64,000 nt of DNA, taken from the NCBI GenBank assembly GCA_902509965.1, contig CABWZP010000004.1:165-64164 (forward strand), in the 5' to 3' direction. Position 1 is the stretch's first letter. Each line of letters opens with the position of its first letter. The position numbers and the translations under genes were made by a program. Below the pieces are notes generated by a model that saw only the letters and a list, made by a program, of their open reading frames with translations, made no database searches and was not told where the DNA came from. Below, piece after piece: positions 3,875 through 54,219 of the stretch. The stretch comes from an uncultured SAR86 cluster bacterium. Lineage in GTDB: Bacteria; Pseudomonadota; Gammaproteobacteria; Magnimaribacterales; D2472.

Positions 3875-4601
3875 AGTTTCCTAGTTCTTTTGCTGGAATT
3901 CCAGCCACTGTAATTCCTGGCTTCACACTTTTTAAAACTAAACTTCCAGCAGCAACTGTAGAGCCTGCTCCGATTTCTATATTTCCTAAAATTGTACTTG
4001 AAGCATATATAGTCGCCCCTCTTTTAACATCAGGATGTCTTTTACCCGAATCGCTACCTGTTCCACCGAGTGTTACTCCTTGAAATATAGAAACCTCAGA
4101 TTCGATATTGCATGTCTGACCAATAACAATGCCTGTGGCATGATCCATCATTACTGCTCCAGCAATATTGGCAGCAGGATGAATATCAATACCAAATACT
4201 TCAGATGCTCTATTTTGGAAAAATAATGCCATTGTATGTCTCTCATTTTTCCAAAGGCAGTTTGCTGCTCTATAAGTAGCTAAACCAAGGAAGCCTTTAT
4301 AAAAAAGCAAAGGTGTTGATAAATAATCACAAGCTGGGTCATTTTCTTTAAAAAATGCTAAGTCTTCTTCTAGAGAAGTCTCTATATGATCACATTCTCT
4401 ATAAACTTCTAAAATAAATCTTTTTATATCGTTTGCTGAAAGAGCATCTGAGTGCAGTTTTGAAGATAAAATTGAAGCAACAGCAGCTAATAAATCAGTT
4501 TGTGATGATATTAATGAATGTAAGAAAGGACCAAGACTTGGCTCAGCATCTTCGCGCAATTTAATTTCCTTTTTAATTGTTTTCCAAAGTTCTCTATCCA
4601 T
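3867..4601 (-). CDS. cysE: serine O-acetyltransferase
   Basis: Hexapeptide-repeat core GIDIHPAANIAGAVMMDHATGIVIGQT and a typical SAT N-terminal helical domain. Confidence 0.85.
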   Translation of the reverse strand: MDRELWKTIKKEIKLREDAEPSLGPFLHSLISSQTDLLAAVASILSSKLHSDALSANDIKRFILEVYRECDHIETSLEEDLAFFKENDPACDYLSTPLLFYKGFLGLATYRAANCLWKNERHTMALFFQNRASEVFGIDIHPAANIAGAVMMDHATGIVIGQTCNIESEVSIFQGVTLGGTGSDSGKRHPDVKRGATIYASSTILGNIEIGAGSTVAAGSLVLKSVKPGITVAGIPAKELGNSN

Positions 4602-4676
4602 ATTTTGAGATTATAGACTAGATTAAGGCCCTCTATTTATATAAAATGCCAATCATTAATTTATAAGGACTATGAC

Positions 4677-6824
4677 ATGAGTAAGTTTTTTCTTTCTTTA
4701 CTTCTATTAACCCAGATTAATTTTCTTTTTGCAGATGAAGGGATGTGGGAACCATCTCAACTTCCAAATATTGAAAAAGATATTAGAGCTGCAGGATTTA
4801 AGGGCAATATCAAAAAGTTTAGTAACCTTTTTGAGCATCCTTTAAATGCCATAGTCAGTCTAGGAGGATGTTCAGCAGCTTTTATTTCTGATTCTGGACT
4901 TATTGCAACAAATTATCATTGTATAGAAGGTTCATATCTCCAGTTTAATGCCAGAAGACTTGAAGAAGATTTATTTAAAACGGGTTTTTTAGCTAAAAAT
5001 CTTGATGAAGAGGCTCAATCTGCACCTGGTGCAAGGGTTTATATTACCCAAGAAAGTACAAATGTAACTAAAGCAGTTCTAAAGGGAACTACTGAAGCAC
5101 AATCTGAAAATGAAAGATATAAAATAATTCAAACTAACAGAAAAAACTTAATAAAGAGTTGTGAAACTAGTGAAGAATTTCAATGTGAAGTTAGAAGTTT
5201 TTATAGCGGAGAAACCTACCAATTAATAAAAAAATTAATAATTAAAGATGTAAGACTTGTCTATGCTCCTCCTCAATCTATTGGTGAGTATGGAGGAGAG
5301 ATAGATAACTGGATGTATCCTCGTCATACTGGTGATTTTGCGCTCCTTAGGGCCTACGTTAGCCCTGCTAATGAGAGTAAGGAATTCTCTAAAGAGAATA
5401 TCCCATATAAATCTAAGAACTTTCTAAAAGTCTCTAAAGGCGGGATCAAAGAAAGTGACTTTGTTATGGTTGCTGGATATCCTGGAAGAACTAATAGACT
5501 ACTACCTTATCCAAAAATAAAATTTGATGTTCAATTTGGTTTCAAACATTATGTAGAATTCTTAAAGTCAGGTATAGATTTAATGAGAGATCTTACTAAA
5601 GATGATGAAGCTAAAGCTCTAAAATATAGAGGCAGTATAAGCGGATATGAGAATTACTATAAAAAAATATCAGGTCAAATTGAGGGAGCAGAAAACTTCA
5701 ATTTACTTGAACAAGAAGAGCAAAATTGGAATAAATTCCTAGATTTTCTAAATTCTAATGGATCTACTTCTGAAAAAAATGCTCTTGATGCCCTCTTAGA
5801 AATTTCAAATGAGCAAAATAGTGAAAGTATCAATAATATGTATTATGGAGGCTCTTCACTTATTGGAACTGCATCAACGATCTATAGACATGCATATGAA
5901 AAGACGAAGCCTAATGAAGATAGAGAACCTGGTTATCAAGAAAGAGATTATGAGAGATTAGTTAATGGGATGAGGGGTATGGAATATAGATTTGACGCAG
6001 AAGTCGATAAAGGTATCTTTTTATTCAGATTAGATAAATACAGAAATGTTAACAGCGAAGACAGGCGTAAAACATATAGTGAGTTATTAAAGCTAGATGG
6101 TCCCTTCGAAGAAACTGTTTCTGTGGTAGATGAAATGTATGCATATTCATCAGATCTTCTTGATATGTCAAAGAGAATTGAACTATTAGATGCCTCTATT
6201 GATGAGTTAAATGCGTCATCAGATCCATTTATTATGTTTGCTAGAAGTATGTTTAATGAAGGTATGGAGCGTGAGAAAAAAAATAAAGCTCGCTCAAGCT
6301 TACAGCAAAAAAATATATCTATTTTTATCAAATCTTTAAGAAGATTTTATAAATCTCAAGGTAAAGATATATATCCTGACGCAAATGGGACTTTACGAGT
6401 TACTTTTGGAAATGTAATGGGGGTTGAGCTTAACGATGGTGTCTATTACAGACCATTTACAACTCTTGAAGGTATTAGTCAAAAAAATACAGGTATAAGC
6501 CCATTTGAGGTAGATACCAAACAACTCAAATTAATTAATAATAAAGAATATGGTAGTTATGAATTTAGTGAAATTGGAAGTGTTCCAGTGAACTACATAT
6601 CAAATTTAGATATAACAAACGGTAATTCAGGATCATCAACTTTAAATGCTAAAGGAGAGTTTGTAGGATTAGCATTTGATGGAATGTTAGAAACTATAAT
6701 TTCTGATTATAAATTTATACCTCAAACAAGAACTATTCATGTAGATTCTAGATATCTCTTATGGACATTAGAAGTATTCGAAGAAGATACAAGGCTAATA
6801 AATGAAATGAAGATTGTCAGATAA
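4677..6824 (+). CDS. S46 family dipeptidyl-peptidase (DPP7/DPP11-like), secreted
   Basis: Signal peptide followed by DEGMW. A HC...catalytic His region and a C-terminal GNSGSS serine motif. Length is about 715 aa. Confidence 0.85.
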   Translation: MSKFFLSLLLLTQINFLFADEGMWEPSQLPNIEKDIRAAGFKGNIKKFSNLFEHPLNAIVSLGGCSAAFISDSGLIATNYHCIEGSYLQFNARRLEEDLFKTGFLAKNLDEEAQSAPGARVYITQESTNVTKAVLKGTTEAQSENERYKIIQTNRKNLIKSCETSEEFQCEVRSFYSGETYQLIKKLIIKDVRLVYAPPQSIGEYGGEIDNWMYPRHTGDFALLRAYVSPANESKEFSKENIPYKSKNFLKVSKGGIKESDFVMVAGYPGRTNRLLPYPKIKFDVQFGFKHYVEFLKSGIDLMRDLTKDDEAKALKYRGSISGYENYYKKISGQIEGAENFNLLEQEEQNWNKFLDFLNSNGSTSEKNALDALLEISNEQNSESINNMYYGGSSLIGTASTIYRHAYEKTKPNEDREPGYQERDYERLVNGMRGMEYRFDAEVDKGIFLFRLDKYRNVNSEDRRKTYSELLKLDGPFEETVSVVDEMYAYSSDLLDMSKRIELLDASIDELNASSDPFIMFARSMFNEGMEREKKNKARSSLQQKNISIFIKSLRRFYKSQGKDIYPDANGTLRVTFGNVMGVELNDGVYYRPFTTLEGISQKNTGISPFEVDTKQLKLINNKEYGSYEFSEIGSVPVNYISNLDITNGNSGSSTLNAKGEFVGLAFDGMLETIISDYKFIPQTRTIHVDSRYLLWTLEVFEEDTRLINEMKIVR

Positions 6825-6839
6825 TTAAAGATTTCAGAA

Positions 6840-6963
6840 AGGGCTCGAAGGTTACATTTTAGAGAAACTTTGCTTTGATTTCTTATAGGAGATTATCAAA
6901 GCACACTTTTAAGGTTCTATGTAGATAAGGGAAACTCAACACCTTAAACCATAACCTTCGAGT
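6840..6963 (-). ncRNA. candidate Fur-repressed small RNA (novel, unnamed)
   Basis: No ORF between the convergent gene ends. A minus-strand promoter with an overlapping Fur box lies immediately upstream. There is an 11-bp perfect closing helix (6844-6854/6952-6962) and a 9-bp hairpin (6871-6879/6895-6903) with a CU-rich anti-SD loop. The ends are approximate. Confidence 0.4.
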
Positions 6964-6965
6964 GC

Positions 6966-6998
6966 GTAAATGATAATCATTCTCATCTAAGAATACAA
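6966..6998 (-). promoter_or_regulatory. Fur box overlapping sigma70-like promoter (-35 TTGTAT 6998-6993, 17-nt spacer, -10 TATCAT 6975-6970)
   Basis: 6966-6984 matches GATAATGATAATCATTATC at 16/19 positions. The core TGATAAT-C-ATTCTCA (6971-6985) is a near-perfect 7-1-7 palindrome. Confidence 0.6.
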
Positions 6999-7002
6999 CC
7001 TT

Positions 7003-7035
7003 TTATCTTAAAAAAAGTGCATATTTTTAAGATAA
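7003..7035 (-). terminator. AT-rich hairpin downstream of katG (possible terminator)
   Basis: A 12-bp inverted repeat, ttatcttaaaaa / tttttaagataa, with a 9-nt loop, 14 nt past the katG stop. It is weak because it contains a single G:C pair. Confidence 0.35.
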
Positions 7036-7048
7036 ATTTAGTTAAGTA

Positions 7049-9208
<2,160 letters not shown>

Positions 9209-9282
9209 TTATGAAAAATATAGATGTAATGATTTTACAACAAATTAAAATTATTTTTTACAAAAAATTTATAAAAACTTTA

Positions 9283-9319
9283 TTGCTAATAAATATAAAC
9301 TAAATGATAATTATTTCAT
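9283..9319 (+). promoter_or_regulatory. putative promoter (-35 TTGCTA 9283-9288, -10 GATAAT 9306-9311) with Fur-family-like box 9305-9319
   Basis: In TGATAAT-T-ATTTCAT one half-site is perfect and the other is degenerate. The site overlaps the -10 element upstream of the small ORF-sodN-sodX unit. Confidence 0.3.
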
Positions 9320-9341
9320 TCATAAAATATAGGAAAATATC

Positions 9342-9527
9342 TTGAAAAAACTAACATCAATACTATTTTGCAGTTTTGCATCATTCAATTTAAGTGCTCA
9401 TGGAGAAGGAATATACAGTCTACATATTCATGGTGAATCTATTTTAGGTCTTGGATTAATCGCAGCTATGTTTCTAGTAGTACCATTGTATTTTTCAAAG
9501 AAATTACTTTTAACTAAGGAGAAATAA
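9342..9527 (+). CDS. small His-rich membrane-anchored protein (hypothetical)
   Basis: TTG start 8 nt after AGGA. Signal-like N-terminus ending in LSA, then HGEGIYSLHIHGES, one TM helix and a basic tail. It abuts sodN with a 1-nt gap, and the sodN SD lies inside its 3' end. Confidence 0.45.
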   Translation: MKKLTSILFCSFASFNLSAHGEGIYSLHIHGESILGLGLIAAMFLVVPLYFSKKLLLTKEK

Positions 9528-9528
9528 T

Positions 9529-9990
9529 ATGTTTAAAATTCAAAAAGTGAGTGCACATTGTGATATACCTTGTGGTGTGTATGACCCGGGTGCTGCTCAG
9601 TATGCTGTGTTAAGTGTTATTAGGTTTATTGATTTAATAAATGAAATGCCTGAATCATTAACTAGTAAGGATGATTTAGCTAAATTTACACGCTTAGTTC
9701 AACAAAAAGAGGAACACTCTGTGATTGCTAAAAATGAAGTTACGGTTATTTGGGGTGATTACTTTAAAGCTCCTCAAATTGAAAAATTTCCAGAAGTGCA
9801 TGAGTTGGTGCATGGGATTATGATGGATGGATCTAAATGTAAACAGGGCCTTCATAGAGAAGATGGTCTCAGTATGCTTTCTAAAATAAATGATTTTGCT
9901 GAAATGTTTTGGGCGACAAAAGAAGTTGAAACTGAAAAGAAAATTTCACCTTATGCTCCAAATTTAGAAATAGTAGTTCCGGTTTTATAA
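9529..9990 (+). CDS. sodN: nickel superoxide dismutase precursor
   Basis: Pro-peptide MFKIQKVSA followed by the Ni-hook HCDIPCGVYDP. AAGGAG SD upstream. Confidence 0.9.
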   Translation: MFKIQKVSAHCDIPCGVYDPGAAQYAVLSVIRFIDLINEMPESLTSKDDLAKFTRLVQQKEEHSVIAKNEVTVIWGDYFKAPQIEKFPEVHELVHGIMMDGSKCKQGLHREDGLSMLSKINDFAEMFWATKEVETEKKISPYAPNLEIVVPVL

Positions 9991-9994
9991 TCTG

Positions 9995-10264
9995 ATTAGA
10001 ATCTTCAAGGTTGTAGGGGTCAGCATGCTTCCTGCTTATAAACCAAATGATTATGTTGTTTGTTTAAAAACAAAAAAAATTAAAGCAAATGATGTAATCA
10101 TTATGCAAACTGATGATCTTGGAAAGGTAGTAAAAAGAGTCAAATCAATATCAGGTAATTCTTTAACAATATTAGGTGATAATAAATCTTATCATTCACC
10201 CATATATGATGCGACACATAAGCTGGATACAGTTATCGGAAAAGTTTTATTTAAATTATTTTAA
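9995..10264 (+). CDS. sodX: Ni-SOD maturation protease (S26 signal-peptidase-like); start codon uncertain
   Basis: VVGVSMLPAYKPNDYVVC (nucleophile Ser motif G.SM.P) and VVKRVKSISGNSLTILGDN (Lys motif). The Ser codon lies upstream of the first ATG (10025). The frame is open from 9977 and offers only CTG 9992, ATT 9995 and ATC 10001. Confidence 0.7.
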   Translation: MRIFKVVGVSMLPAYKPNDYVVCLKTKKIKANDVIIMQTDDLGKVVKRVKSISGNSLTILGDNKSYHSPIYDATHKLDTVIGKVLFKLF

Positions 10265-10666
10265 GAAATTTTTCATTGCTGCAAGCGTTTTTGATCCCAC
10301 ATGATGCTCAATCCCTTCACTGTCAATTTCAGCATTAGCTTTATCAACACCCAGCTTTGTTAAAAATGCTAGGACAATTAAGTGACGCTCTTTAACACGT
10401 TTTGCAAGTTTAGATCCCTTAGCTGTCAGTTCTACTGGCTTATAGGGCTTGGTATATAAAAGATCTTCATCTTGCAATCGTTTCACTATACGAGAAACGG
10501 TAACATGACTAACATTGAAGTATCTTGCTAGGTCTAGCACCCTGCACTCACCTTTTTCTTCAACTAATTCCATTACAGCCTCAACATAATCTTCAGCAGT
10601 TTCGCTGGCATGACGTGAACGCGTTTGTGAAAAGGGAACTGAACGAGCCTTAATCTTTTTTTTCAC
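10256..10666 (-). CDS. mntR: manganese-responsive DtxR-family repressor
   Basis: Close to E. coli MntR in layout: EDYVEAV, an HTH (VSHVTVSRIVKRL), ERHLIV and SEGIEHHV metal ligands, and no SH3 domain. Confidence 0.85.
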   Translation of the reverse strand: MKKKIKARSVPFSQTRSRHASETAEDYVEAVMELVEEKGECRVLDLARYFNVSHVTVSRIVKRLQDEDLLYTKPYKPVELTAKGSKLAKRVKERHLIVLAFLTKLGVDKANAEIDSEGIEHHVGSKTLAAMKNFLK

Positions 10667-10713
10667 TACTTTCCCGCCTTTTTTTTTAAATTAACTATAC
10701 ATAAATTATACCC

Positions 10714-10742
10714 TTGACATCATCCGTAGCCATTGCTACATT
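10714..10742 (+). promoter_or_regulatory. sigma70-like promoter (TTGACA-17-TACATT) containing MntR-box-like palindrome GTAGC-CATT-GCTAC (10726-10739)
   Basis: The perfect 5-4-5 inverted repeat inside the spacer resembles the enterobacterial MntR operator core CATAGC-N4-GCTATG, as I recall it. Confidence 0.45.
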
Positions 10743-10748
10743 TATACC

Positions 10749-11294
10749 GTGAAAGATTACCTTAAATATGATGACGTGAAAATTTTTAAATATGAAAATT
10801 TTTATTTATCAGTAATTTATACCATCGGGCACATATTAGTCGCCATGACATGTAATAGGATAATTACTGGGGCATCACTAGATATGGCAGCAGCTGATGC
10901 ATTAATAGAGCCTATAATCAATGGATTTTGGTTCTATTTCCTTTTAGTGTATTTAAAAAAAATATTCGTCCATAAAATTGAATCGAGTAATTCGGTATTT
11001 ATAAGCGTTAATCAAATTGGTTTTTTATTAGCATTTCTCTATACAGTTGGTCATATTCTTATTGCTATGACTTGCAATAGATTGCTGACAGGGGCATCTT
11101 TAAATCTAGCAGTTATTGATGCATTTATAGAACCTATAGTTAATGGTTTCTGGTTTTACCTGCTATTTGAATTTTTTAACAAATATAAGAAGAAGAAAAT
11201 ATCCAGTGGTTTTCAAACCTTCAGCAGCATCTCCAAATCAAGCAAAGTTTCTAGACTCGCACCATTAAATAATAAAATACATTCTGATCTTTAG
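10749..11294 (+). CDS. membrane protein with two tandem DUF2061-like repeats
   Basis: Internal duplication: YTIGHILVAMTCNRIITGASLDMAAADALIEPIINGFWFYFLL versus YTVGHILIAMTCNRLLTGASLNLAVIDAFIEPIVNGFWFYLLF. GTG start with no SD; it may be leaderless or may start at the GTG at 10776. Confidence 0.55.
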   Translation: MKDYLKYDDVKIFKYENFYLSVIYTIGHILVAMTCNRIITGASLDMAAADALIEPIINGFWFYFLLVYLKKIFVHKIESSNSVFISVNQIGFLLAFLYTVGHILIAMTCNRLLTGASLNLAVIDAFIEPIVNGFWFYLLFEFFNKYKKKKISSGFQTFSSISKSSKVSRLAPLNNKIHSDL

Positions 11295-11519
11295 AATTCT
11301 GAAGCTTTTGGTTTAAAACTGGAACTAACTAGCAATCTCCTTAAGAAGCTATGGAAACAATTTTAATTTTTAAAGCTTTACATTTACTCAATAAAGTTTT
11401 TTAATAAGTCTAATCGAGATTTGGTCCTATTGCCGCGATTTAAAATAAAGTGCTAAAACGGAATTATTCCCAGGATTAACAACTAACAAGATGAATTATT
11501 CGTCTATGGAGGATAATAA

Positions 11520-12413
11520 ATGAAACCCTTAATTTTAGACTCAGCTCTTGGTACAGAGCTTGAAAATCGTGGAGAATATCTACCAAGTTTTAAAACATCA
11601 ATTTGGTCTGCATATTCATTGATACATAATCCAGATGTAATCACCCAAATTCACATAGATAATATCGAAGCTGGAGCAGATGTTATTACAACATCAAACT
11701 ATCAAGCTACACCCGAACTTTTAAAACGAGAACCAAGTGCTCCTTCTTATGATTATTTAGCTAAACGTGCAGTTGAGTTGTGCCAAGAAGCGGTTATAAA
11801 AACTAATACAAAAACAAAAATTGCCGGGTGCTTTCCTCCTATCCATGTAACATTTAGACCAGATTTAACTTCTAAAGAAAAACATTTAAGAAAATTTTAT
11901 AAAACTCTTGGAGCAATATATCAAGATAATGTCGATGTTATCATTTGTGAAACTATGGCATCCTTATATGAAGGAACTATTGCAGCTAATACAGCAAAAG
12001 ATTTCTCTAAGACAGTTTGGTTATCTTGGACCACTAGAGGGAACAAACTTAATAGACTTCCAAGTACTGAACTTTTACATGATGTAATTTTAAAATCTAT
12101 AGACCTAGATATAGACTGTCAATTGGTTAATTGTGTCCATGCAGATACAGCAACACTTGCAATTAATAGCTTAAATAAAGAAAAAAGTTTTGGAATATAT
12201 GCTAACTCATCAATATATAAAAAAAATAAATTAGAGGGTTTTATAAGTGATTCTGATGAATGGCATTATCATAATCATAAGCATATAGATCAAGTTGAAT
12301 ATGGTAAATATGTGTCGCAATGGATTAAAGAAGGTGCATCTGTTGTTGGTGGTTGTTGTAGGACAACAACAGAACATATAAAAGTTATAAGAAAAATAAT
12401 CGATGCAATATAA
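11520..12413 (+). CDS. homocysteine S-methyltransferase family protein
   Basis: N-terminal LDSALGTELE motif and C-terminal zinc-site GGCCRTT. GGAGG SD. Confidence 0.8.
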   Translation: MKPLILDSALGTELENRGEYLPSFKTSIWSAYSLIHNPDVITQIHIDNIEAGADVITTSNYQATPELLKREPSAPSYDYLAKRAVELCQEAVIKTNTKTKIAGCFPPIHVTFRPDLTSKEKHLRKFYKTLGAIYQDNVDVIICETMASLYEGTIAANTAKDFSKTVWLSWTTRGNKLNRLPSTELLHDVILKSIDLDIDCQLVNCVHADTATLAINSLNKEKSFGIYANSSIYKKNKLEGFISDSDEWHYHNHKHIDQVEYGKYVSQWIKEGASVVGGCCRTTTEHIKVIRKIIDAI

Positions 12414-12430
12414 AGCAGATTATTAAAAAA

Positions 12431-12506
12431 GTGGTGGAGCTACGCGGGATCGAACCGCGGACCCCCTGCTTGCAAAGCAGGTGCTCTCCCAGCTGAGCTA
12501 TAGCCC
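12431..12506 (-). tRNA. tRNA-Ala (anticodon UGC)
   Basis: The reverse complement reads GGGGCTATAGCTCAGCTGGGAGAGCACCTGCTTTGCAAGCAGGGGGTCCGCGGTTCGATCCCGCGTAGCTCCACCA. It folds as a cloverleaf with the G3:U70 identity pair and an encoded CCA. Confidence 0.95.
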
Positions 12507-12570
12507 CACGAATGAGCCGTAATTGTACTTTATATGATATAAATTTGTACACTTATTATTATGAGGTGTA

Positions 12571-12607
12571 AAAAAAAAGAGTTACCTTATTAAAGGTAAC
12601 TCTTTTT
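12571..12607. terminator. bidirectional rho-independent terminator
   Basis: An 11-bp perfect stem (agagttacctt / aaggtaactct) with a 4-nt loop, flanked by an A8 run and a T5 run. It sits just past the TonB receptor stop. Confidence 0.7.
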
Positions 12608-12625
12608 ATCCTCTTCTAACTTTTA

Positions 12626-14788
12626 TTAGAAATTAATTGTGAATCCAACCTTAACTGATCTAGGTTTCTGTGATCTAGCCCCATTCTTTGGTGCTCTTGC
12701 GACTATATCAGCGTCATCACTTACATTCTCTACAACGGTATAGATAGTAACTTTATCTGTAAGTACTTGTCTTAAGCTAAGATCAACAAATGTAAATGAT
12801 TCGATGTTTTCGAATTCATCACACTGCGCTGTTGAACAAGTGCTTCCATATTTTGCAATTCTAATATCGCCACTTAAGCCTGTATCAGTAACAAAGCCTG
12901 CAACAGCAGCTAGTTGTGAGTTTGGCAGATAAGGCACATCATCGCCTGTAGCAACAGTACCAAAGTAATCTGAATCAAAACTTGATTGAAATTCAGATGA
13001 AATGTTTGCCCAAGTTAAAGCTAATGGATAAGATACGCCGTTAACACCCTCTATAAGAGTAGAGGCTTTAACTTCAAGACCGGAAACATCAACCTCTCCA
13101 CCATCAAAGGTATCACCAGCTTCACAATCTCCGCCGCTAGAATTTTTACATTCTCCAACAAGATTTGCGTAATCGCTTGAGAAGTACATGACTTCAAGAG
13201 CAGTAACATCCTTGTTATATCTGAATCCGAGCTCTAAGTTATCAGCCTCTTCAGCATTACCACCAAATACAGGCGACATTCCCTGATGGAAACCGGCAAC
13301 TAGTTTTAAGTTTTCATTCATATCATATGTTGCGCCAACTCCTGTTGTTGAATAATCTCCTGAGGAGTATTTAGGATAGCTTGAATTAGGCATTGTTCTT
13401 GTTGGAACTCCGTCATCCCATCTCATTTCAACTTTATCGAATTCTTCAGATCTGTGTCCAACAGTTATAGCAAGATCTCCCATGGTGAAAGTGTCTTGTA
13501 CAAACCATGATGTTGCTGTTGTAGTTCTTAATCTATTATTGCTTCCAGTATAGCCTGTAGAACATGAAACTAATGGTGTAAGACCACCCAGAGATGTCTG
13601 ATCAGTACATTCATAGCTTTGCAATCTGCTTTCAGAATCTTCCATATCTCTATAACCAACTAATAATGAGTGATTACCAATATCCTTAGAAATATTAAAT
13701 TGAGTTCCTTCATTAGTATAGAATCTATTGTTATGCTTTAACTTTACCGTTACAGCTAATGATCCATCAAGAATTGCTTGAGCATTGGCATCACCAGCAT
13801 TTGCAGCAGCAATAACCTCATCAATACCATCTTCTACTCCATGAGCTTTTGTACTATTAGCTTTATCTACTTTGAACCAATCTCTATGATAATCATTACT
13901 CCATGTAGTTGCTGTAACTTTAAAACCTTCAAAGTCACCAACGTAAGTTAAAGAAGTCTGGTCACCATCGTTATTCATAACATCATATTTAGTCATGCCA
14001 TATCTTTGTCTTGGATTTCTATCAAAACTAGATTGAGTAAGTCCTACGTATGTTTGATTTGACATCTCATCAACATCGAGAAGCTTAAGAGTTAATTCAT
14101 GAGCACCTGATGTATAACGTAACTTAGCGAGGACATCTGATTTATCAAAACCAGTATCTCCACCTACATTAGCGATAGAATCAAACCCATCTGCACTATG
14201 CTCATGCACTTCAACCATTCCAGACATTTTCTCAGCATTAAAACCAAGTGTCATATGAGTTCTAGAAAGACCATCACTACCCATTTCTTGAGTAACAAAA
14301 CCACCATTAGCTTCAGGAATAGGAGTACTAATCATATTAATAGCTCCACCAATTGTAGATGGCCCCTGAGTAATTGCTGCTGGTCCTTTAAGAACTTCAA
14401 CAGCATGAATTCTTCCAGTAGTTGGGAAATAATATGCTGATGCAGATGTATATGGAGCTGGAGCAATCAGAACTCCATCTTCCATTAAGGTAACTTTACC
14501 AGATCTATCAGGAGCAGTACCTCTGATAGATATATTTGGTCTAAGACCATACCCATCTTCAGTTCTTACGTATACTCCAGGCACAGCTGATAAAATTTTA
14601 TGTATATCAGTATCAACCAATTTAGCAAGATCTTCATTAGAAAGAACTGTTGCAGAACCTGCTACATCCTCCTGAGACCCTACTATAGTAACAGTTTCAA
14701 CTGTATTCATTTCCATTTCAGCATAAGCGCTTAAGCTAAATAATGCCAAGAAAGCAAATGAATTTAAGACTTTAATATTAATACTCAT
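12626..14788 (-). CDS. TonB-dependent outer-membrane receptor (iron/siderophore type inferred from Fur box)
   Basis: Signal peptide, plug domain (TVTIVGSQED..., RGTAPDRSGKVTLMEDGV) and a C-terminal Phe (TINF). I place the start at the ATG at 14788, 8 nt after GGAG. Confidence 0.9.
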   Translation of the reverse strand: MSINIKVLNSFAFLALFSLSAYAEMEMNTVETVTIVGSQEDVAGSATVLSNEDLAKLVDTDIHKILSAVPGVYVRTEDGYGLRPNISIRGTAPDRSGKVTLMEDGVLIAPAPYTSASAYYFPTTGRIHAVEVLKGPAAITQGPSTIGGAINMISTPIPEANGGFVTQEMGSDGLSRTHMTLGFNAEKMSGMVEVHEHSADGFDSIANVGGDTGFDKSDVLAKLRYTSGAHELTLKLLDVDEMSNQTYVGLTQSSFDRNPRQRYGMTKYDVMNNDGDQTSLTYVGDFEGFKVTATTWSNDYHRDWFKVDKANSTKAHGVEDGIDEVIAAANAGDANAQAILDGSLAVTVKLKHNNRFYTNEGTQFNISKDIGNHSLLVGYRDMEDSESRLQSYECTDQTSLGGLTPLVSCSTGYTGSNNRLRTTTATSWFVQDTFTMGDLAITVGHRSEEFDKVEMRWDDGVPTRTMPNSSYPKYSSGDYSTTGVGATYDMNENLKLVAGFHQGMSPVFGGNAEEADNLELGFRYNKDVTALEVMYFSSDYANLVGECKNSSGGDCEAGDTFDGGEVDVSGLEVKASTLIEGVNGVSYPLALTWANISSEFQSSFDSDYFGTVATGDDVPYLPNSQLAAVAGFVTDTGLSGDIRIAKYGSTCSTAQCDEFENIESFTFVDLSLRQVLTDKVTIYTVVENVSDDADIVARAPKNGARSQKPRSVKVGFTINF

Positions 14789-14824
14789 AAATAACACTCC
14801 ATATATGTTCGGTTAGATTTGTGA

Positions 14825-14853
14825 ATGATAATGATTATCATTTAGATTTACAA
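14825..14853 (-). promoter_or_regulatory. Fur box (perfect TGATAATGATTATCA, 14826-14840) overlapping promoter TTGTAA-17-TATCAT
   Basis: A perfect 7-1-7 Fur palindrome. The -35 element is at 14853-14848 and the -10 at 14830-14825 on the minus strand, about 40 nt upstream of the receptor start. Confidence 0.8.
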
Positions 14854-15392: not shown

Positions 15393-16697
15393 TTACTGAA
15401 TAAAAGGATCGCTATCATCTATCAAATTAAAGCCTTTCATATCAGTAAATCTATTTAATTCATCATTTCCAATATTAATAAAAGCATACATTAGTCCCGT
15501 TTCGCTTATTTTTTCTTTTAGAATGCATCCCATGCTATAAAGTTTTGACCTAATAATACCCAAATCTGCATCTAAAGAGATCCATCCTCTGTAAATGCCT
15601 TCAAACAGAGTATTGCTTATAGACTCTCTTAATTCCTCTAATCCTTTATTTTTTTCAGCCGAGATCCATATCTGTCTTCCTTCAATATCAGACCTGGATT
15701 CAAAATCTTTATAACCCTTTAAATCACTTTTATTGTTAATTCTAATTTGAGGAATTTTAGCGATGCCTAGCTCTTCTAACAATATATCTACCTGAGAAAC
15801 TTTGAATCTATAATCAGGGTCTGAAATATCTACTACGTGAAGTAATAAATCTGCAGATTTAAGTTCGTCTAAAGTTCCTTTAAAGGATTCAATTAGTTGA
15901 GTTGGAAGATCTGAAATAAATCCTACTGTGTCTGAAAATAAAATAGAACTAAGCTCCGGATCAATATTTTTTCTTGTAACAGAATCTAATGTTGCAAAGA
16001 GTTTATCTGCAGCGTATTGCTCGTTATCTGTAAGTCTATTAAATAATGTTGTTTTGCCTGCGTTAGTATAACCAACTAAAGCAACCAGCTTGTTACGACT
16101 CTTCATTCTTGAGTACTGATTAATCTTCTTTTGTTTATGACTTTTATCTAATCTAGCTTTAATTGTCTTAATTCTGTTATTTATTAACCTTTTGTCAGTC
16201 TCTAGCTGAGTTTCACCTGGGCCACGAAGCCCAATTCCCCCTTTTTGTCTTTCTAAATGAGTCCAAGCCCTAATCAATCTAGTCGATAGATGGGTTAGCT
16301 GAGCTAACTCAACCTGTAGTTTACCAATATGGGTCGATGCTCTTGATGCAAAAATGTCTAAAATTAGCCCAGTCCTGTCAACCACCCTGACATTAAATGC
16401 ATTCTCTAGATTTCTTTCTTGTGAGGGGGAAAGTGTATGGTTAAAAATTACAATTTCAGCACAAGTTTCCTCGACTGATCTTTTGATTTCTTCAATTTTT
16501 CCCTTCTTTAGAAAATGACTGGCCAGTGGCGCATCTTGCTTACCAGAAATTTCATCTAGTATCTCAACACCAGAGGATCTTGATAAATCTTTAAATTCGG
16601 CGAAGGCGTTAATTGCAGACTGATCTTTTTGTAAAGAAGTTACTTCCATTTGTACAATAATTGCTTTTTGTGGAGTTGATATTGGAACTTCAATCAT
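15393..16697 (-). CDS. hflX: GTPase HflX
   Basis: HflX N-terminal domain plus the G-domain motifs GYTNAGKTTLFN and DTVGF. Confidence 0.9.
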   Translation of the reverse strand: MIEVPISTPQKAIIVQMEVTSLQKDQSAINAFAEFKDLSRSSGVEILDEISGKQDAPLASHFLKKGKIEEIKRSVEETCAEIVIFNHTLSPSQERNLENAFNVRVVDRTGLILDIFASRASTHIGKLQVELAQLTHLSTRLIRAWTHLERQKGGIGLRGPGETQLETDKRLINNRIKTIKARLDKSHKQKKINQYSRMKSRNKLVALVGYTNAGKTTLFNRLTDNEQYAADKLFATLDSVTRKNIDPELSSILFSDTVGFISDLPTQLIESFKGTLDELKSADLLLHVVDISDPDYRFKVSQVDILLEELGIAKIPQIRINNKSDLKGYKDFESRSDIEGRQIWISAEKNKGLEELRESISNTLFEGIYRGWISLDADLGIIRSKLYSMGCILKEKISETGLMYAFINIGNDELNRFTDMKGFNLIDDSDPFIQ

Positions 16698-16952
16698 ATA
16701 TTGACTTCATTGTAGAACCTTTATTAGATTTTTTGCTATTATATTTAAGTAAGCATTGATTTTTAATGCTTAGGGAGCTATTAATTAATAAAGCAGAGCG
16801 TTTAGCAAACTCAGAACAAGCTAGCAAAAAGCGAAGATCAATTAAGAAAATTGTTTCAGAACAAAAAGAGAATCTATATAGAAAAATAAGAAAAGCAAAG
16901 AAGAAAAGAATTTAATCTTAGATTTTTTATAATTTACTTTTTGTAGCTGGCT

Positions 16953-17702
16953 TTAAATGATCCAAGGCAATATTGCCTTTCTGGATGCAGGATACTCTTT
17001 AAATTCCTTTTTATACCACTTGTGATTAGCAATAGCTCTTGGAAAAAGGTTGGCAAAAGTCCATACGAAAAATATAAATCCTGATAGGCTAAAGGTAAGG
17101 ATAGCCCAGCCCATCCACTCTAATAGCTCGCCAAAATAATTTGGAGATGAAATTCGTTTAAACAAAAAACTATTTGGAATATGGTAACCAGGGCCTTTTT
17201 CTTTTCTTAAATTAATTAAAATATAATCTGAGCGAATATTTATATATAGCCCAATAATAAAAATACATATCCCAAAAATAAACACTGGGGAACTTAGCCA
17301 GTCTAGAGAGTAGCTAGCGAAATAAAAAATCCAGTAACCTTGAATAGAAACATTGATAATGTTGAAAAAGAAAGCTGACAAAGCTATGGTTAAAGGCATT
17401 TCTTTACCAGTCATGTTAACTCTATAAGGCCAAATTAAAGTTCTGTGAACATAATGAGTCATCCAAAGAGTTAAAAAGATGCCTGAAACTAGATTTAATG
17501 ATTCCCAAGCACCTGCAGCCAATATAAGCATTAAAAATACACATGGAGATTCCATAAAAACCCAGCCAAACCTTGCAGATACATTGGGTCCCCAACCATC
17601 CTTAAGATGTCTTCCATATGGAGCAACTACGTAAAAAAGAGAAAAGAATATAACTATAGCTATAGCAATCCAAGCTATTGAGAATATATTAAATGAGCTC
17701 AT
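16953..17702 (-). CDS. steroid 5-alpha-reductase / DUF1295 family membrane protein
   Basis: Polytopic membrane protein with the C-terminal NYFGELLEWMGWAI motif. Confidence 0.65.
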   Translation of the reverse strand: MSSFNIFSIAWIAIAIVIFFSLFYVVAPYGRHLKDGWGPNVSARFGWVFMESPCVFLMLILAAGAWESLNLVSGIFLTLWMTHYVHRTLIWPYRVNMTGKEMPLTIALSAFFFNIINVSIQGYWIFYFASYSLDWLSSPVFIFGICIFIIGLYINIRSDYILINLRKEKGPGYHIPNSFLFKRISSPNYFGELLEWMGWAILTFSLSGFIFFVWTFANLFPRAIANHKWYKKEFKEYPASRKAILPWII

Positions 17703-52649: not shown

Positions 52650-53659
52650 TAGCTATTTGATACTCTTACATAGGCTGCTAGCTTGTCAGCTGCTTTGCCG
52701 CTATTCATTAAATCAAAAGCTAGCTCTACTCCATCTTCAATAGACTCAGTTTTTTTTGCAACATAAAGACCAGCCCCAGCATTTAGAGCAATCATGTCTT
52801 GAATTGCTGATTTTTCTCCGGCAAAAGCCTCTCTTACTAAAAGCAGACTTTCTTCAGGAGTTTGAGCAGATATCTCACTAAAGTCTGCAGTAGAAAGGCC
52901 AAAATCTTTTGGTGATATTTTGTACTGATTAATTTTGTAGTTCTTAAGTTCAGAAATTGTGGTTGAGCCTGTAATAGTTATTTCATCTAGGCCATCATCT
53001 CCATGGACAATTAAAACATGCTCCATATGTAAATTTTTTGATACCTCTGAAAAAGTCTCAAGTAATTTTTTATCATAAACGCCTAGAACCTGTCTTTTAG
53101 CTCCACAAGGATTGGTATGAGGGCCTAATAAGTTAAAAATAGTTTTTTGGCCTATACGTTGTCGTGCTGGCATGACATATTTCATAGATTGATGATGTAA
53201 AGGAGCAAATAAGAATACAAATCCAACCTTTGCAAAAACTTTTTCAAGTTTTTCTCTATCATGACCAATATCAGCACCTGCAGCTGTTAAAAAATCTGCA
53301 CTGCCAGACTTGCTAGAAATAGCCTTATTGCCATGTTTAGTAATTTGAGCACCTCCAGCTGCAGCAACAAAGGATGATGCAGTAGAACAATTAAATGTAT
53401 GAAGCCCTGTGCCGCCAGTCCCACAAGTATCAATATGACTTCCATCTCCCAAATTAAATCTTAAAGATTTTTCTTTCATAACTTGAGCAGCAGCTGTTAT
53501 TTCTAACTCTTTAATGCCCTTTTCATTTAAAGCTAAAAGAAATTTCTCAATATCGCTATCATCAACCATACCGGTCATTATGCTTTCCACTGCAAACTGC
53601 ATCTCTTCAGACTTTAAGTCCTTCTTGGTTTCTAATTTTTTTAGAATAGTTTCAATCAT
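52649..53659 (-). CDS. trpD: anthranilate phosphoribosyltransferase
   Basis: DTCGTGG and KHGN motifs. Confidence 0.9.
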   Translation of the reverse strand: MIETILKKLETKKDLKSEEMQFAVESIMTGMVDDSDIEKFLLALNEKGIKELEITAAAQVMKEKSLRFNLGDGSHIDTCGTGGTGLHTFNCSTASSFVAAAGGAQITKHGNKAISSKSGSADFLTAAGADIGHDREKLEKVFAKVGFVFLFAPLHHQSMKYVMPARQRIGQKTIFNLLGPHTNPCGAKRQVLGVYDKKLLETFSEVSKNLHMEHVLIVHGDDGLDEITITGSTTISELKNYKINQYKISPKDFGLSTADFSEISAQTPEESLLLVREAFAGEKSAIQDMIALNAGAGLYVAKKTESIEDGVELAFDLMNSGKAADKLAAYVRVSNS

Positions 53660-54219
53660 AATGTTAAGAAATTTTGAATGAGTTTTTTACCAAAATCTGT
53701 TTCTATGGATTCAGGATGAAATTGTACTCCGTAAATTGGTCTTTGTTTGTGCTGAACTGCCATGATGATGTCAGGATTATCTTTGAGTACCGAGGTTATT
53801 TCTAACTCATCTGGTAATGAGCTTTTTTCGATGATTAGGCTGTGATATCTAACCACTGAATAAGGATTATCAATATCTTTAAATAGATCTTTATTGCTAT
53901 GAGTAATTTCTGAGAGTTTCCCATGAAATATTTCTGGAGCTTTTATAATCTTGCCACCAAATGCTGCTCCTATAGATTGGTGTCCTAGACAAACTCCTAG
54001 TATGGGAACCGATGAAGCTTTTATTAAGTCAATTGAGATGCCGGCTTCATATGGAGTACAAGGTCCTGGAGAAATTACGATTTTATTTGGATTAAGCAAA
54101 GCTATATCTTGGAGAGTTATTTCATCATTTCTTTTTACGATAACCTCTTCTCCGAGTTCTCCAATATAGTGGACTAGGTTATAAGTAAAAGAATCATAAT
54201 TATCTATAACTAAAATCAT
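53656..54219 (-). CDS. trpG: anthranilate synthase component II (glutamine amidotransferase)
   Basis: The GVCLGHQ nucleophile and the FHPES motif. Confidence 0.9.
   Translation of the reverse strand: MILVIDNYDSFTYNLVHYIGELGEEVIVKRNDEITLQDIALLNPNKIVISPGPCTPYEAGISIDLIKASSVPILGVCLGHQSIGAAFGGKIIKAPEIFHGKLSEITHSNKDLFKDIDNPYSVVRYHSLIIEKSSLPDELEITSVLKDNPDIIMAVQHKQRPIYGVQFHPESIETDFGKKLIQNFLTL

Follow-up and report, generated by a model that had tools for sequence, protein, structure and literature searches.

What does a promoter under a Fur box drive when no protein-coding gene follows it? In a stretch of 64,000 nt of DNA (the window, below), such a promoter points into the spacer between a gene for an S46 peptidase and katG. 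Titles of related genome loci, together with base composition (about 34% GC), place the window in a SAR86 gammaproteobacterium. SAR86 bacteria are among the most abundant heterotrophs of the surface ocean and long resisted cultivation; they have small genomes with few regulators. Iron often limits growth in the surface ocean. After comparing the locus with its relatives, we are confident that the spacer contains a conserved and previously unannotated gene for a folded RNA of about 126 nt, read from the minus strand behind a Fur site and a promoter of its own. This RNA is most likely a new regulator of iron starvation.

The promoter and its surroundings

The peptidase gene and katG are convergent, with a spacer of 224 nt between them. 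Beyond the spacer lies a neighbourhood of metal and oxidative-stress genes (7049-14853). The features of the locus are:

4677-6824, plus strand: S46 peptidase gene
6966-6984: Fur box GTAAATGATAATCATTCTC, matching the consensus at 16 of 19 positions; lies across the spacer and -10 element of the promoter on the minus strand
6970-6975, minus strand: -10 element TATCAT, 17 nt after the -35; TATTAT in L001
6993-6998, minus strand: -35 element TTGTAT; the TTG is kept in all homologues but L042 and L001
7003-7035: AT-rich 12-bp hairpin between the -35 and the katG stop, with covarying stems and U runs on both sides
7049-7051, minus strand: stop codon of katG (catalase-peroxidase), whose likely start is the ATG at 9181
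9529-9990: nickel superoxide dismutase (Ni-SOD) gene, divergent from katG
10256-10666: gene for a DtxR/MntR-family metal-dependent repressor
12626-14797: gene for a TonB-dependent receptor, with a Fur-box promoter

The initial annotation of this region had proposed a -35 and a -10 with a 17-nt spacer, covered by a near-consensus Fur box. All of the coordinates agree with the sequence, and the 16/19 match is at 6966-6984. A 15-mer at 6971-6985 (TGATAATCATTCTCA) has 1 mismatch to the 7-1-7 palindrome. The promoter of the TonB-dependent receptor does have the same layout as 6970-6998, as had been pointed out: TTGTAA-17-TATCAT, with a Fur palindrome at 14826-14840. If up to 3 mismatches are allowed, the Fur 19-mer has 4 matches in the window (0.13 are expected from shuffles), and two of these overlap each other at the receptor promoter.

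Two other Fur-like sequences may be mentioned here. The fourth match (16/19; 53859-53877) falls within the coding sequence for a class-I glutamine amidotransferase (53656-54219) and may be due to chance. Upstream of katG, between it and the divergent Ni-SOD gene, there is an AT-rich imperfect palindrome (GAATGAAATAATTATCATT; 9300-9325, minus strand) that resembles a Fur-family operator and differs from the Fur 19-mer at more than 3 positions.

Of 15 distinct sequences of this region, 14 share an unchanged Fur box and -10. L001 has changes at three positions of the box, which still matches at 15/19. Thirteen of the 15 retain the TTG of the -35 and the 17-nt spacing; L042 and L001 have lost the -35. 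A generic scan for sigma-70 promoters did not list the minus-strand promoter at 6970-6998, as the -35 shares just 3 of its 6 positions with TTGACA. With such a poor -35, which two lineages have lost, the promoter is predicted to be weak. We consider it probable that the small RNA gene is repressed by Fur.

The spacer had been described as free of open reading frames. Our scan agrees: there is no ORF of at least 20 amino acids between 6824 and 7049. Also, the indels among the relatives' copies of the element are not multiples of three, so the element has no coding potential. We considered a small peptide encoded by a 16-codon ORF from 6986 and rejected it: the ORF begins upstream of the predicted RNA start, and indels in the relatives break its frame.

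Fold, conservation and the strand under selection

The predicted RNA and its parts, all on the minus strand, are:

6838-6963: predicted small RNA of about 126 nt, with a putative start at A6963 and a putative 3' end in the C/U tract after P1
6952-6962: 5' arm of P1, CUCGAAGGUUA
6948-6941 with 6915-6908: P2, 8 pairs
6938-6935 with 6929-6926: P2b, a 4-pair extension of P2
6903-6895 with 6879-6871: P3 hairpin, 9 pairs, with the 15-nt loop AAUCUCCUAUAAGAA
6855-6870: unpaired linker AAGUUUCUCUAAAAUG, with the invariant core AAGUUUCUCUAAA, the third CU-rich motif
6844-6854: 3' arm of P1, UAACCUUCGAG; also the inverted repeat across which the module of L001 flips
6833-6843: C/U-rich tail CCCUUUCUGAA, after P1

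The elements that had been noticed in the window by itself are all present: the perfect 11-bp closing helix (6962-6952 with 6854-6844), the 9-bp hairpin with its loop, and a second loop with UUUCCCUUAUCU. Across the 15 distinct sequences, the overall fold is a three-way junction of P1 (11 pairs), P2 (8+4) and P3 (9). The P3 loop includes CUCCU, which is like an anti-Shine-Dalgarno sequence, and the P2/P2b region (6908-6948) carries the invariant GAGUUUCCCUUAUC. With the core of the linker, there are three invariant CU-rich unpaired motifs (GAGUUUCCCUUAUC, CUCCUAU, and AAGUUUCUCUAAA). In the alignment of the 15 sequences, the loops are invariant and the stems drift. By analogy to known small RNAs, the three motifs look like anti-Shine-Dalgarno seeds.

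We looked for this locus in other genomes in two ways. Guided by protein similarity, a scan of species-representative genomes turned up eight from SAR86 that have the peptidase-katG arrangement, with peptidases that are 79-86% identical at the protein level, and a pattern scan of metagenome contigs found thirteen more loci, one of them partial. In 14 related loci, identity to the window is 88-98% over 6833-6990, which comprises the element and its Fur box. For the same 14 loci the figures are 76-98% for the peptidase DNA and 72-97% for the katG DNA, and what is left of the spacer reaches no more than 84% in most loci or resists alignment, so the element is the most constrained DNA of its neighbourhood. 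The initial annotation had asked whether the helices and the Fur box are conserved in relatives, and in these SAR86 loci they are.

Identity to the window is mosaic over 5700-8200 in L006, L042, L084, and L132. For example, the peptidase gene is 78% identical and katG is 89% identical in L006, as against 84% and 72% in L132. This suggests recombination breakpoints around the spacer.

Which strand is the functional one? The minus strand has a minimum free energy of -34.6 kcal/mol (z = -3.3 relative to dinucleotide shuffles). The plus strand is its equal in this respect (z = -3.8), so folding energy by itself is no guide to the strand. The drift of the helices is. For 32 pairs in 15 distinct sequences, 478 of the 480 pair cells (99.6%) are standard pairs on the minus strand, including 45 G·U pairs, and there are 2 mismatches. 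If the same pairs are read from the plus strand, 434/480 are standard, and 45 of the 46 mismatches are C·A or A·C. When the 3' partners are displaced by 1-3 columns, pairing falls to 33-53% of the cells, and out of 500 shuffles just 1 does as well as the real alignment in pairing, pair-type count, or covariation score. Among the variable pair positions, the drift preserves minus-strand pairing at ten and plus-strand pairing at one; if both directions are equally likely under neutral drift of a palindrome, then we estimate p ~0.006 (binomial test). P1 has one compensatory change from A-U to U-A (in L002) and four one-sided changes to G·U. In P3, 5 of the 9 pairs vary, solely by changes that keep G·U on the minus strand. 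Because the drift maintains pairing on the minus strand and breaks it on the plus strand, selection acts on a minus-strand RNA, and this counts decisively against a 3' UTR of the peptidase mRNA.

Classical covariation is weak. The change in L002 is the only true double compensation, because the sequences are so close to each other. Our covariance model (R1) is built from closely related sequences and has an effective sequence number of 1.15. R1 scores the minus strand at 170 bits and the plus strand at 21 bits, the model having been built from the minus-strand alignment. Run over the window and 41 loci, it identified the element once at each syntenic locus and nowhere else in 385 kb, with no second copy or distant homologue in the window or in 40 other, more distant SAR86 loci. 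There was also no match in phage and plasmid collections. The element is known from one SAR86 subclade and one syntenic position: in relatives whose peptidase is about 70% identical, the synteny with katG is lost and the element is absent at this position. L039 and L032 have Fur-box matches as well, these being located well upstream of the peptidase gene. We rejected the match in L039 (the one of these two loci that we read) as a further copy, as that box is the operator of a gene for a signal-peptide protein.

Transcripts, an inverted lineage, and other explanations

The putative start at A6963 lies 7 nt after the -10 and 1 nt before P1. P1 is followed by CCCUUUCU, and in some relatives the tail is a run of 6-7 U. 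P1 and this C/U tail are thus a probable terminator, which would give an RNA of about 126 nt. The stems of the hairpin at 7003-7035 covary (for instance CCCTTTT/AAAAGGG in L084) and there are U runs on both sides of it, so it looks like a bidirectional terminator, probably for katG and for read-through on the plus strand. Several RNA contigs end at 7000-7036.

The RNA runs that we examined are unstranded assembled metatranscriptome contigs, with flat depth and no iron metadata. (Runs X12, X39, X40, and X42 are DNA, not RNA.) A 171-nt region from this locus is present in many marine metatranscriptome assemblies. Some contigs cross the spacer and extend past the predicted start and end (6721-7018, 6776-7000, 6821-7036, and 6431-7011), so there is read-through from katG or the peptidase gene, or else carry-over of DNA. 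Four rRNA-depleted runs, which were picked by the flanking genes and not by the spacer, have zero coverage of 6847-7001. In three of the four, all from one study, the peptidase contigs break off abruptly at 6843-6846 and have adapter-like tails. In X53, a peptidase contig ends at 6853, and a separate contig, which is katG read-through, runs from inside katG to 6838; the two overlap by 16 nt. This pair fits the pattern of convergent transcripts, with the minus-strand 3' end in the predicted tail, though the contigs are unstranded. No terminator-like site precedes the peptidase contig ends at 6843-6853 on the plus strand. These ends are at the edge of the predicted overlap and could reflect processing of a sense-antisense duplex. 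We did not see an abundant discrete RNA in the unstranded contigs; an RNA of 126 nt may be lost in standard library preparation.

One lineage has a different arrangement. In the single-cell genome L001, the segment between the 12-bp repeats is exactly inverted, with the flanks and the Fur box in place:

L001:6145-6265: inverted module, corresponding to the forward module at L132:3662-3781

L132 is a metagenome contig with the usual orientation. The peptidase genes of L001 and L132 are 99% identical and their inner segments differ at few positions, so the two appear to be nearly conspecific. Metagenome contigs from two studies (runs X64-X67) reproduce the arrangement of L001, with 0 differences over 227 nt in X64. 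As these contigs agree, the inversion is natural, and we rule out an artefact of MDA or other amplification. Both arrangements, forward and inverted, thus occur in near-conspecific natural genomes.

Orientation follows lineage: 20 assemblies are forward, versus one inverted lineage. Both orientations with identical flanks occur in no assembly or contig, and contigs cannot reveal minority forms. (The one raw-read DNA run, X24, had no coverage of this organism.) No recombinase domain was found in the eight nearest genes that we scanned. Also, the P1 repeats drift in ways that break the symmetry of the DNA and keep G·U pairs in the RNA. Given an orientation that is fixed per lineage, drift that is compatible with the RNA, and no recombinase nearby, we read L001 as a rare evolutionary inversion across the closing helix of the RNA and not as a switch. 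In L001, the sense RNA would lie in the 3' UTR of the peptidase gene, and the Fur promoter would make its antisense. A simple Fur-promoter model does not explain this inversion. The natural inverted variant offers a ready-made comparison for function.

The inverted lineage, and no other, also has an extra 152-codon ORF between the Fur box and katG (L001:6286-6744, minus strand), whose stop codon is inside the Fur box. The predicted protein, for which Pfam has no match, features a signal of the lipoprotein type (LSAC) and a hydrophobic stretch with a glycine zipper.

Could these observations be explained without a small RNA that acts in trans? One explanation, which we consider unlikely, is that the minus-strand RNA is real but acts in cis, either as a 3' end module or terminator for read-through from katG or as an antisense partner of the peptidase's 3' UTR. 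In the antisense version, the 3' UTR would reach the hairpin at 7003-7035, and the Fur-controlled antisense RNA and the mRNA would destroy or sponge each other. The X53 contig that runs from inside katG through the spacer to 6838 favours a cis role, as do the peptidase contigs that stop at 7000-7036, by the bidirectional hairpin, and the sharp ends at the edge of the overlap. However, the contigs are unstranded and may include DNA, and katG already has a terminator in the 7003-7035 hairpin. A plain terminator or antisense RNA would need neither three invariant CU-rich motifs nor a conserved Fur promoter of its own. A cis role would also be compatible with a role in trans. The initial annotation had named another alternative, that the region is just the 3' UTR or terminator of the peptidase mRNA on the plus strand. 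Although the plus strand folds just as well, and some RNA runs have contigs that continue from the peptidase gene into the spacer, we give this idea almost no credence. It fails the strand test (46 mismatches in the conserved helices, versus 2 for the minus strand), the plus strand has neither a U tract after the structure nor a terminator-like site, and the peptidase contigs of four runs end short of the structure, at 6843-6853.

Another idea is that a Fur-regulated RNA acts without pairing to mRNAs, for instance by binding or titrating a protein through its CU-rich motifs. Such a role would suit loops that are invariant while the stems drift, and the 64-kb scan (see below) did not find a convincing mRNA target. 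In many gammaproteobacteria hfq lies upstream of hflX, and there is no hfq at this position in the window (hflX is at 15393-16697, and we inspected 16697-16953), which would also fit. But the motifs look like anti-Shine-Dalgarno seeds, the target search spanned 64 kb only, and we know of no bacterial protein that recognises CU-rich motifs of this kind in such a way, so we think that protein titration is quite unlikely. The inversion in L001 relative to the near-conspecific L132, reproduced as it is in contigs from two studies, raises the question of whether the element works at the level of DNA, as an invertible switch or as a miniature mobile element bounded by 11-12-bp inverted repeats. Either is very improbable: the orientation is fixed by lineage, none of the eight nearest genes that we checked encodes a recombinase, the repeats lose their symmetry as DNA yet keep G·U pairs as RNA, and each locus has just one copy, whereas the rest of the window, the 40 other loci, and the phage and plasmid collections have none. 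We specifically rejected a miniature inverted-repeat mobile element, as dispersed copies are absent from the 385 kb and from those collections. It is also improbable that the RNA gene is a reversible cassette, flipped by recombination or template switching across the repeats of the closing helix. If it were, then one orientation would yield the regulator from the Fur promoter, the other would put the regulator in the peptidase's 3' UTR and have the Fur promoter make antisense, and SAR86 lineages could rewire or silence an iron-stress regulator by inverting 120 bp of DNA.

A possible role in iron sparing, and comparison to known small RNAs

As an explanation of the whole, we lean towards a stand-alone, Fur-controlled small RNA that would act in trans on mRNAs of iron proteins. 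On the narrower point of whether it is a trans-acting, iron-sparing regulator, we consider the question nearly balanced, tilting slightly towards yes. In the mechanism that we propose, we infer the start and end of transcription, the repression by Fur, the base pairing in trans, and the identity of the target. The RNA would be made from a stand-alone minus-strand gene, from about 6963 to about 6838, whose sigma-70 promoter has its spacer and -10 under the Fur operator. When iron is plentiful, Fe-Fur would occupy the operator and the RNA would be off; when iron is scarce, the RNA would be made. It would fold as a three-way junction closed by the 11-bp P1, and P1 with the C/U tract behind it would end transcription. 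The junction would display the invariant single-stranded CU-rich motifs UUUCCCUUAUC, CUCCUAU, and GUUUCUCU, which would most likely pair with the purine-rich ribosome-binding regions of mRNAs for iron-using proteins. This pairing would lower translation, as in the iron-sparing responses of the RyhB/PrrF/IsrR kind. The haem enzyme encoded by katG would be the leading candidate target.

In the 64-kb window, the katG leader (AUAGGAG) ranks second among 53 start regions for the P3 loop. The initial annotation had described the pairing of CUCCUAU with the Shine-Dalgarno region of katG as just 7 nt and not significant on its own, and we concur: it is 7 nt in most lineages and no better than controls. 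Across nine lineages, the pairing energies for katG sense were no better than those for katG antisense or for the peptidase controls. In the L132/L136/L001 lineage, the loop is ACCUCCUAUAA and the katG leader is UUAUAGGAGGU, with 11 complementary bases (-16.8 kcal/mol) and changes on both sides.

Scans for other targets in the 64-kb window found nothing that beats control genes or antisense strands. The best match of loop 2 near a start codon (31352-31342) was rejected, as it lies inside the coding region of a transporter. The other candidate that we examined is cysE (minus strand, start at 4601; region 4577-4625). It has TATAAT 8 nt before its ATG and appears to be leaderless. From +3 to +15 its sequence complements the invariant linker (AAAGUUUCUCUA, -13.1 kcal/mol); the complementarity is conserved in most relatives, in a stretch that is also constrained by coding.

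If our proposal is correct, then this would be the first post-transcriptional regulator of iron described for SAR86, as far as our literature searches go, and a new family for Rfam. It might also be used to track in situ iron stress of SAR86, in metatranscriptomes that retain small RNAs. We did not find any report of this element in the literature. The only non-coding RNA of SAR86 that we did find, from Dupont et al. (PMC3358033), is in a sugar-metabolism locus elsewhere in the genome.

The element had been said to resemble no known iron-responsive small RNA, and the comparison to Rfam bears this out. No family, including RyhB, PrrF, NrrF, and FsrA, matched at the gathering score in the whole window, and with E ≤10 there were only chance snoRNA-like matches at 6700-7150. 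There is no tRNA or tmRNA at the locus either. From its sequence and predicted fold, then, we view the element as a real and probably Fur-repressed small RNA, which belongs to a known kind (the Fur-controlled small RNAs) but to no known family, and so as a new RNA family.

RyhB (RF00057) and PrrF1/PrrF2 (RF00444) are the Fur-repressed, iron-sparing small RNAs of Enterobacteria and of Pseudomonas, respectively. Like them, the SAR86 RNA is a short non-coding RNA of a gammaproteobacterium with pyrimidine-rich unpaired regions, behind an orphan promoter under a Fur box (here the 16/19 box at 6966-6984), and it adjoins genes for iron and oxidative stress. However, neither family matches the SAR86 RNA in sequence or structure, even at E = 10. 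RyhB and PrrF are chains of hairpins with a classical terminator, whereas the SAR86 RNA is predicted to be a three-way junction closed by a long-range helix. Also, PrrF is a tandem pair, and the SAR86 RNA is present in a single copy in the window.

Small RNAs of the DapZ/MicL type are associated with 3' UTRs: they have their own promoter and share a terminator with the upstream mRNA. The SAR86 RNA comes right after katG and shares its strand, and one RNA contig suggests that read-through from katG ends at the same 3' end. It differs in that its promoter is located after the stop codon and the terminator hairpin of katG, not inside the coding region.

IsrR of Staphylococcus aureus and FsrA of Bacillus subtilis are Fur-repressed and have several C-rich loops that pair with Shine-Dalgarno regions. 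RyhB, PrrF, FsrA, and IsrR all act through seeds of the anti-Shine-Dalgarno type. IsrR and FsrA are from another phylum and are unrelated in sequence, and the motifs in SAR86 are UUUCCCUU, CUCCU, and UUUCUCU. But they too have Fur boxes in the promoter and several C/U-rich motifs in the loops or linkers of a stable fold, and the SAR86 RNA has three invariant CU-rich unpaired motifs in a fold that is supported by its relatives. In their probable mode of action, IsrR and FsrA are probably its closest analogues.
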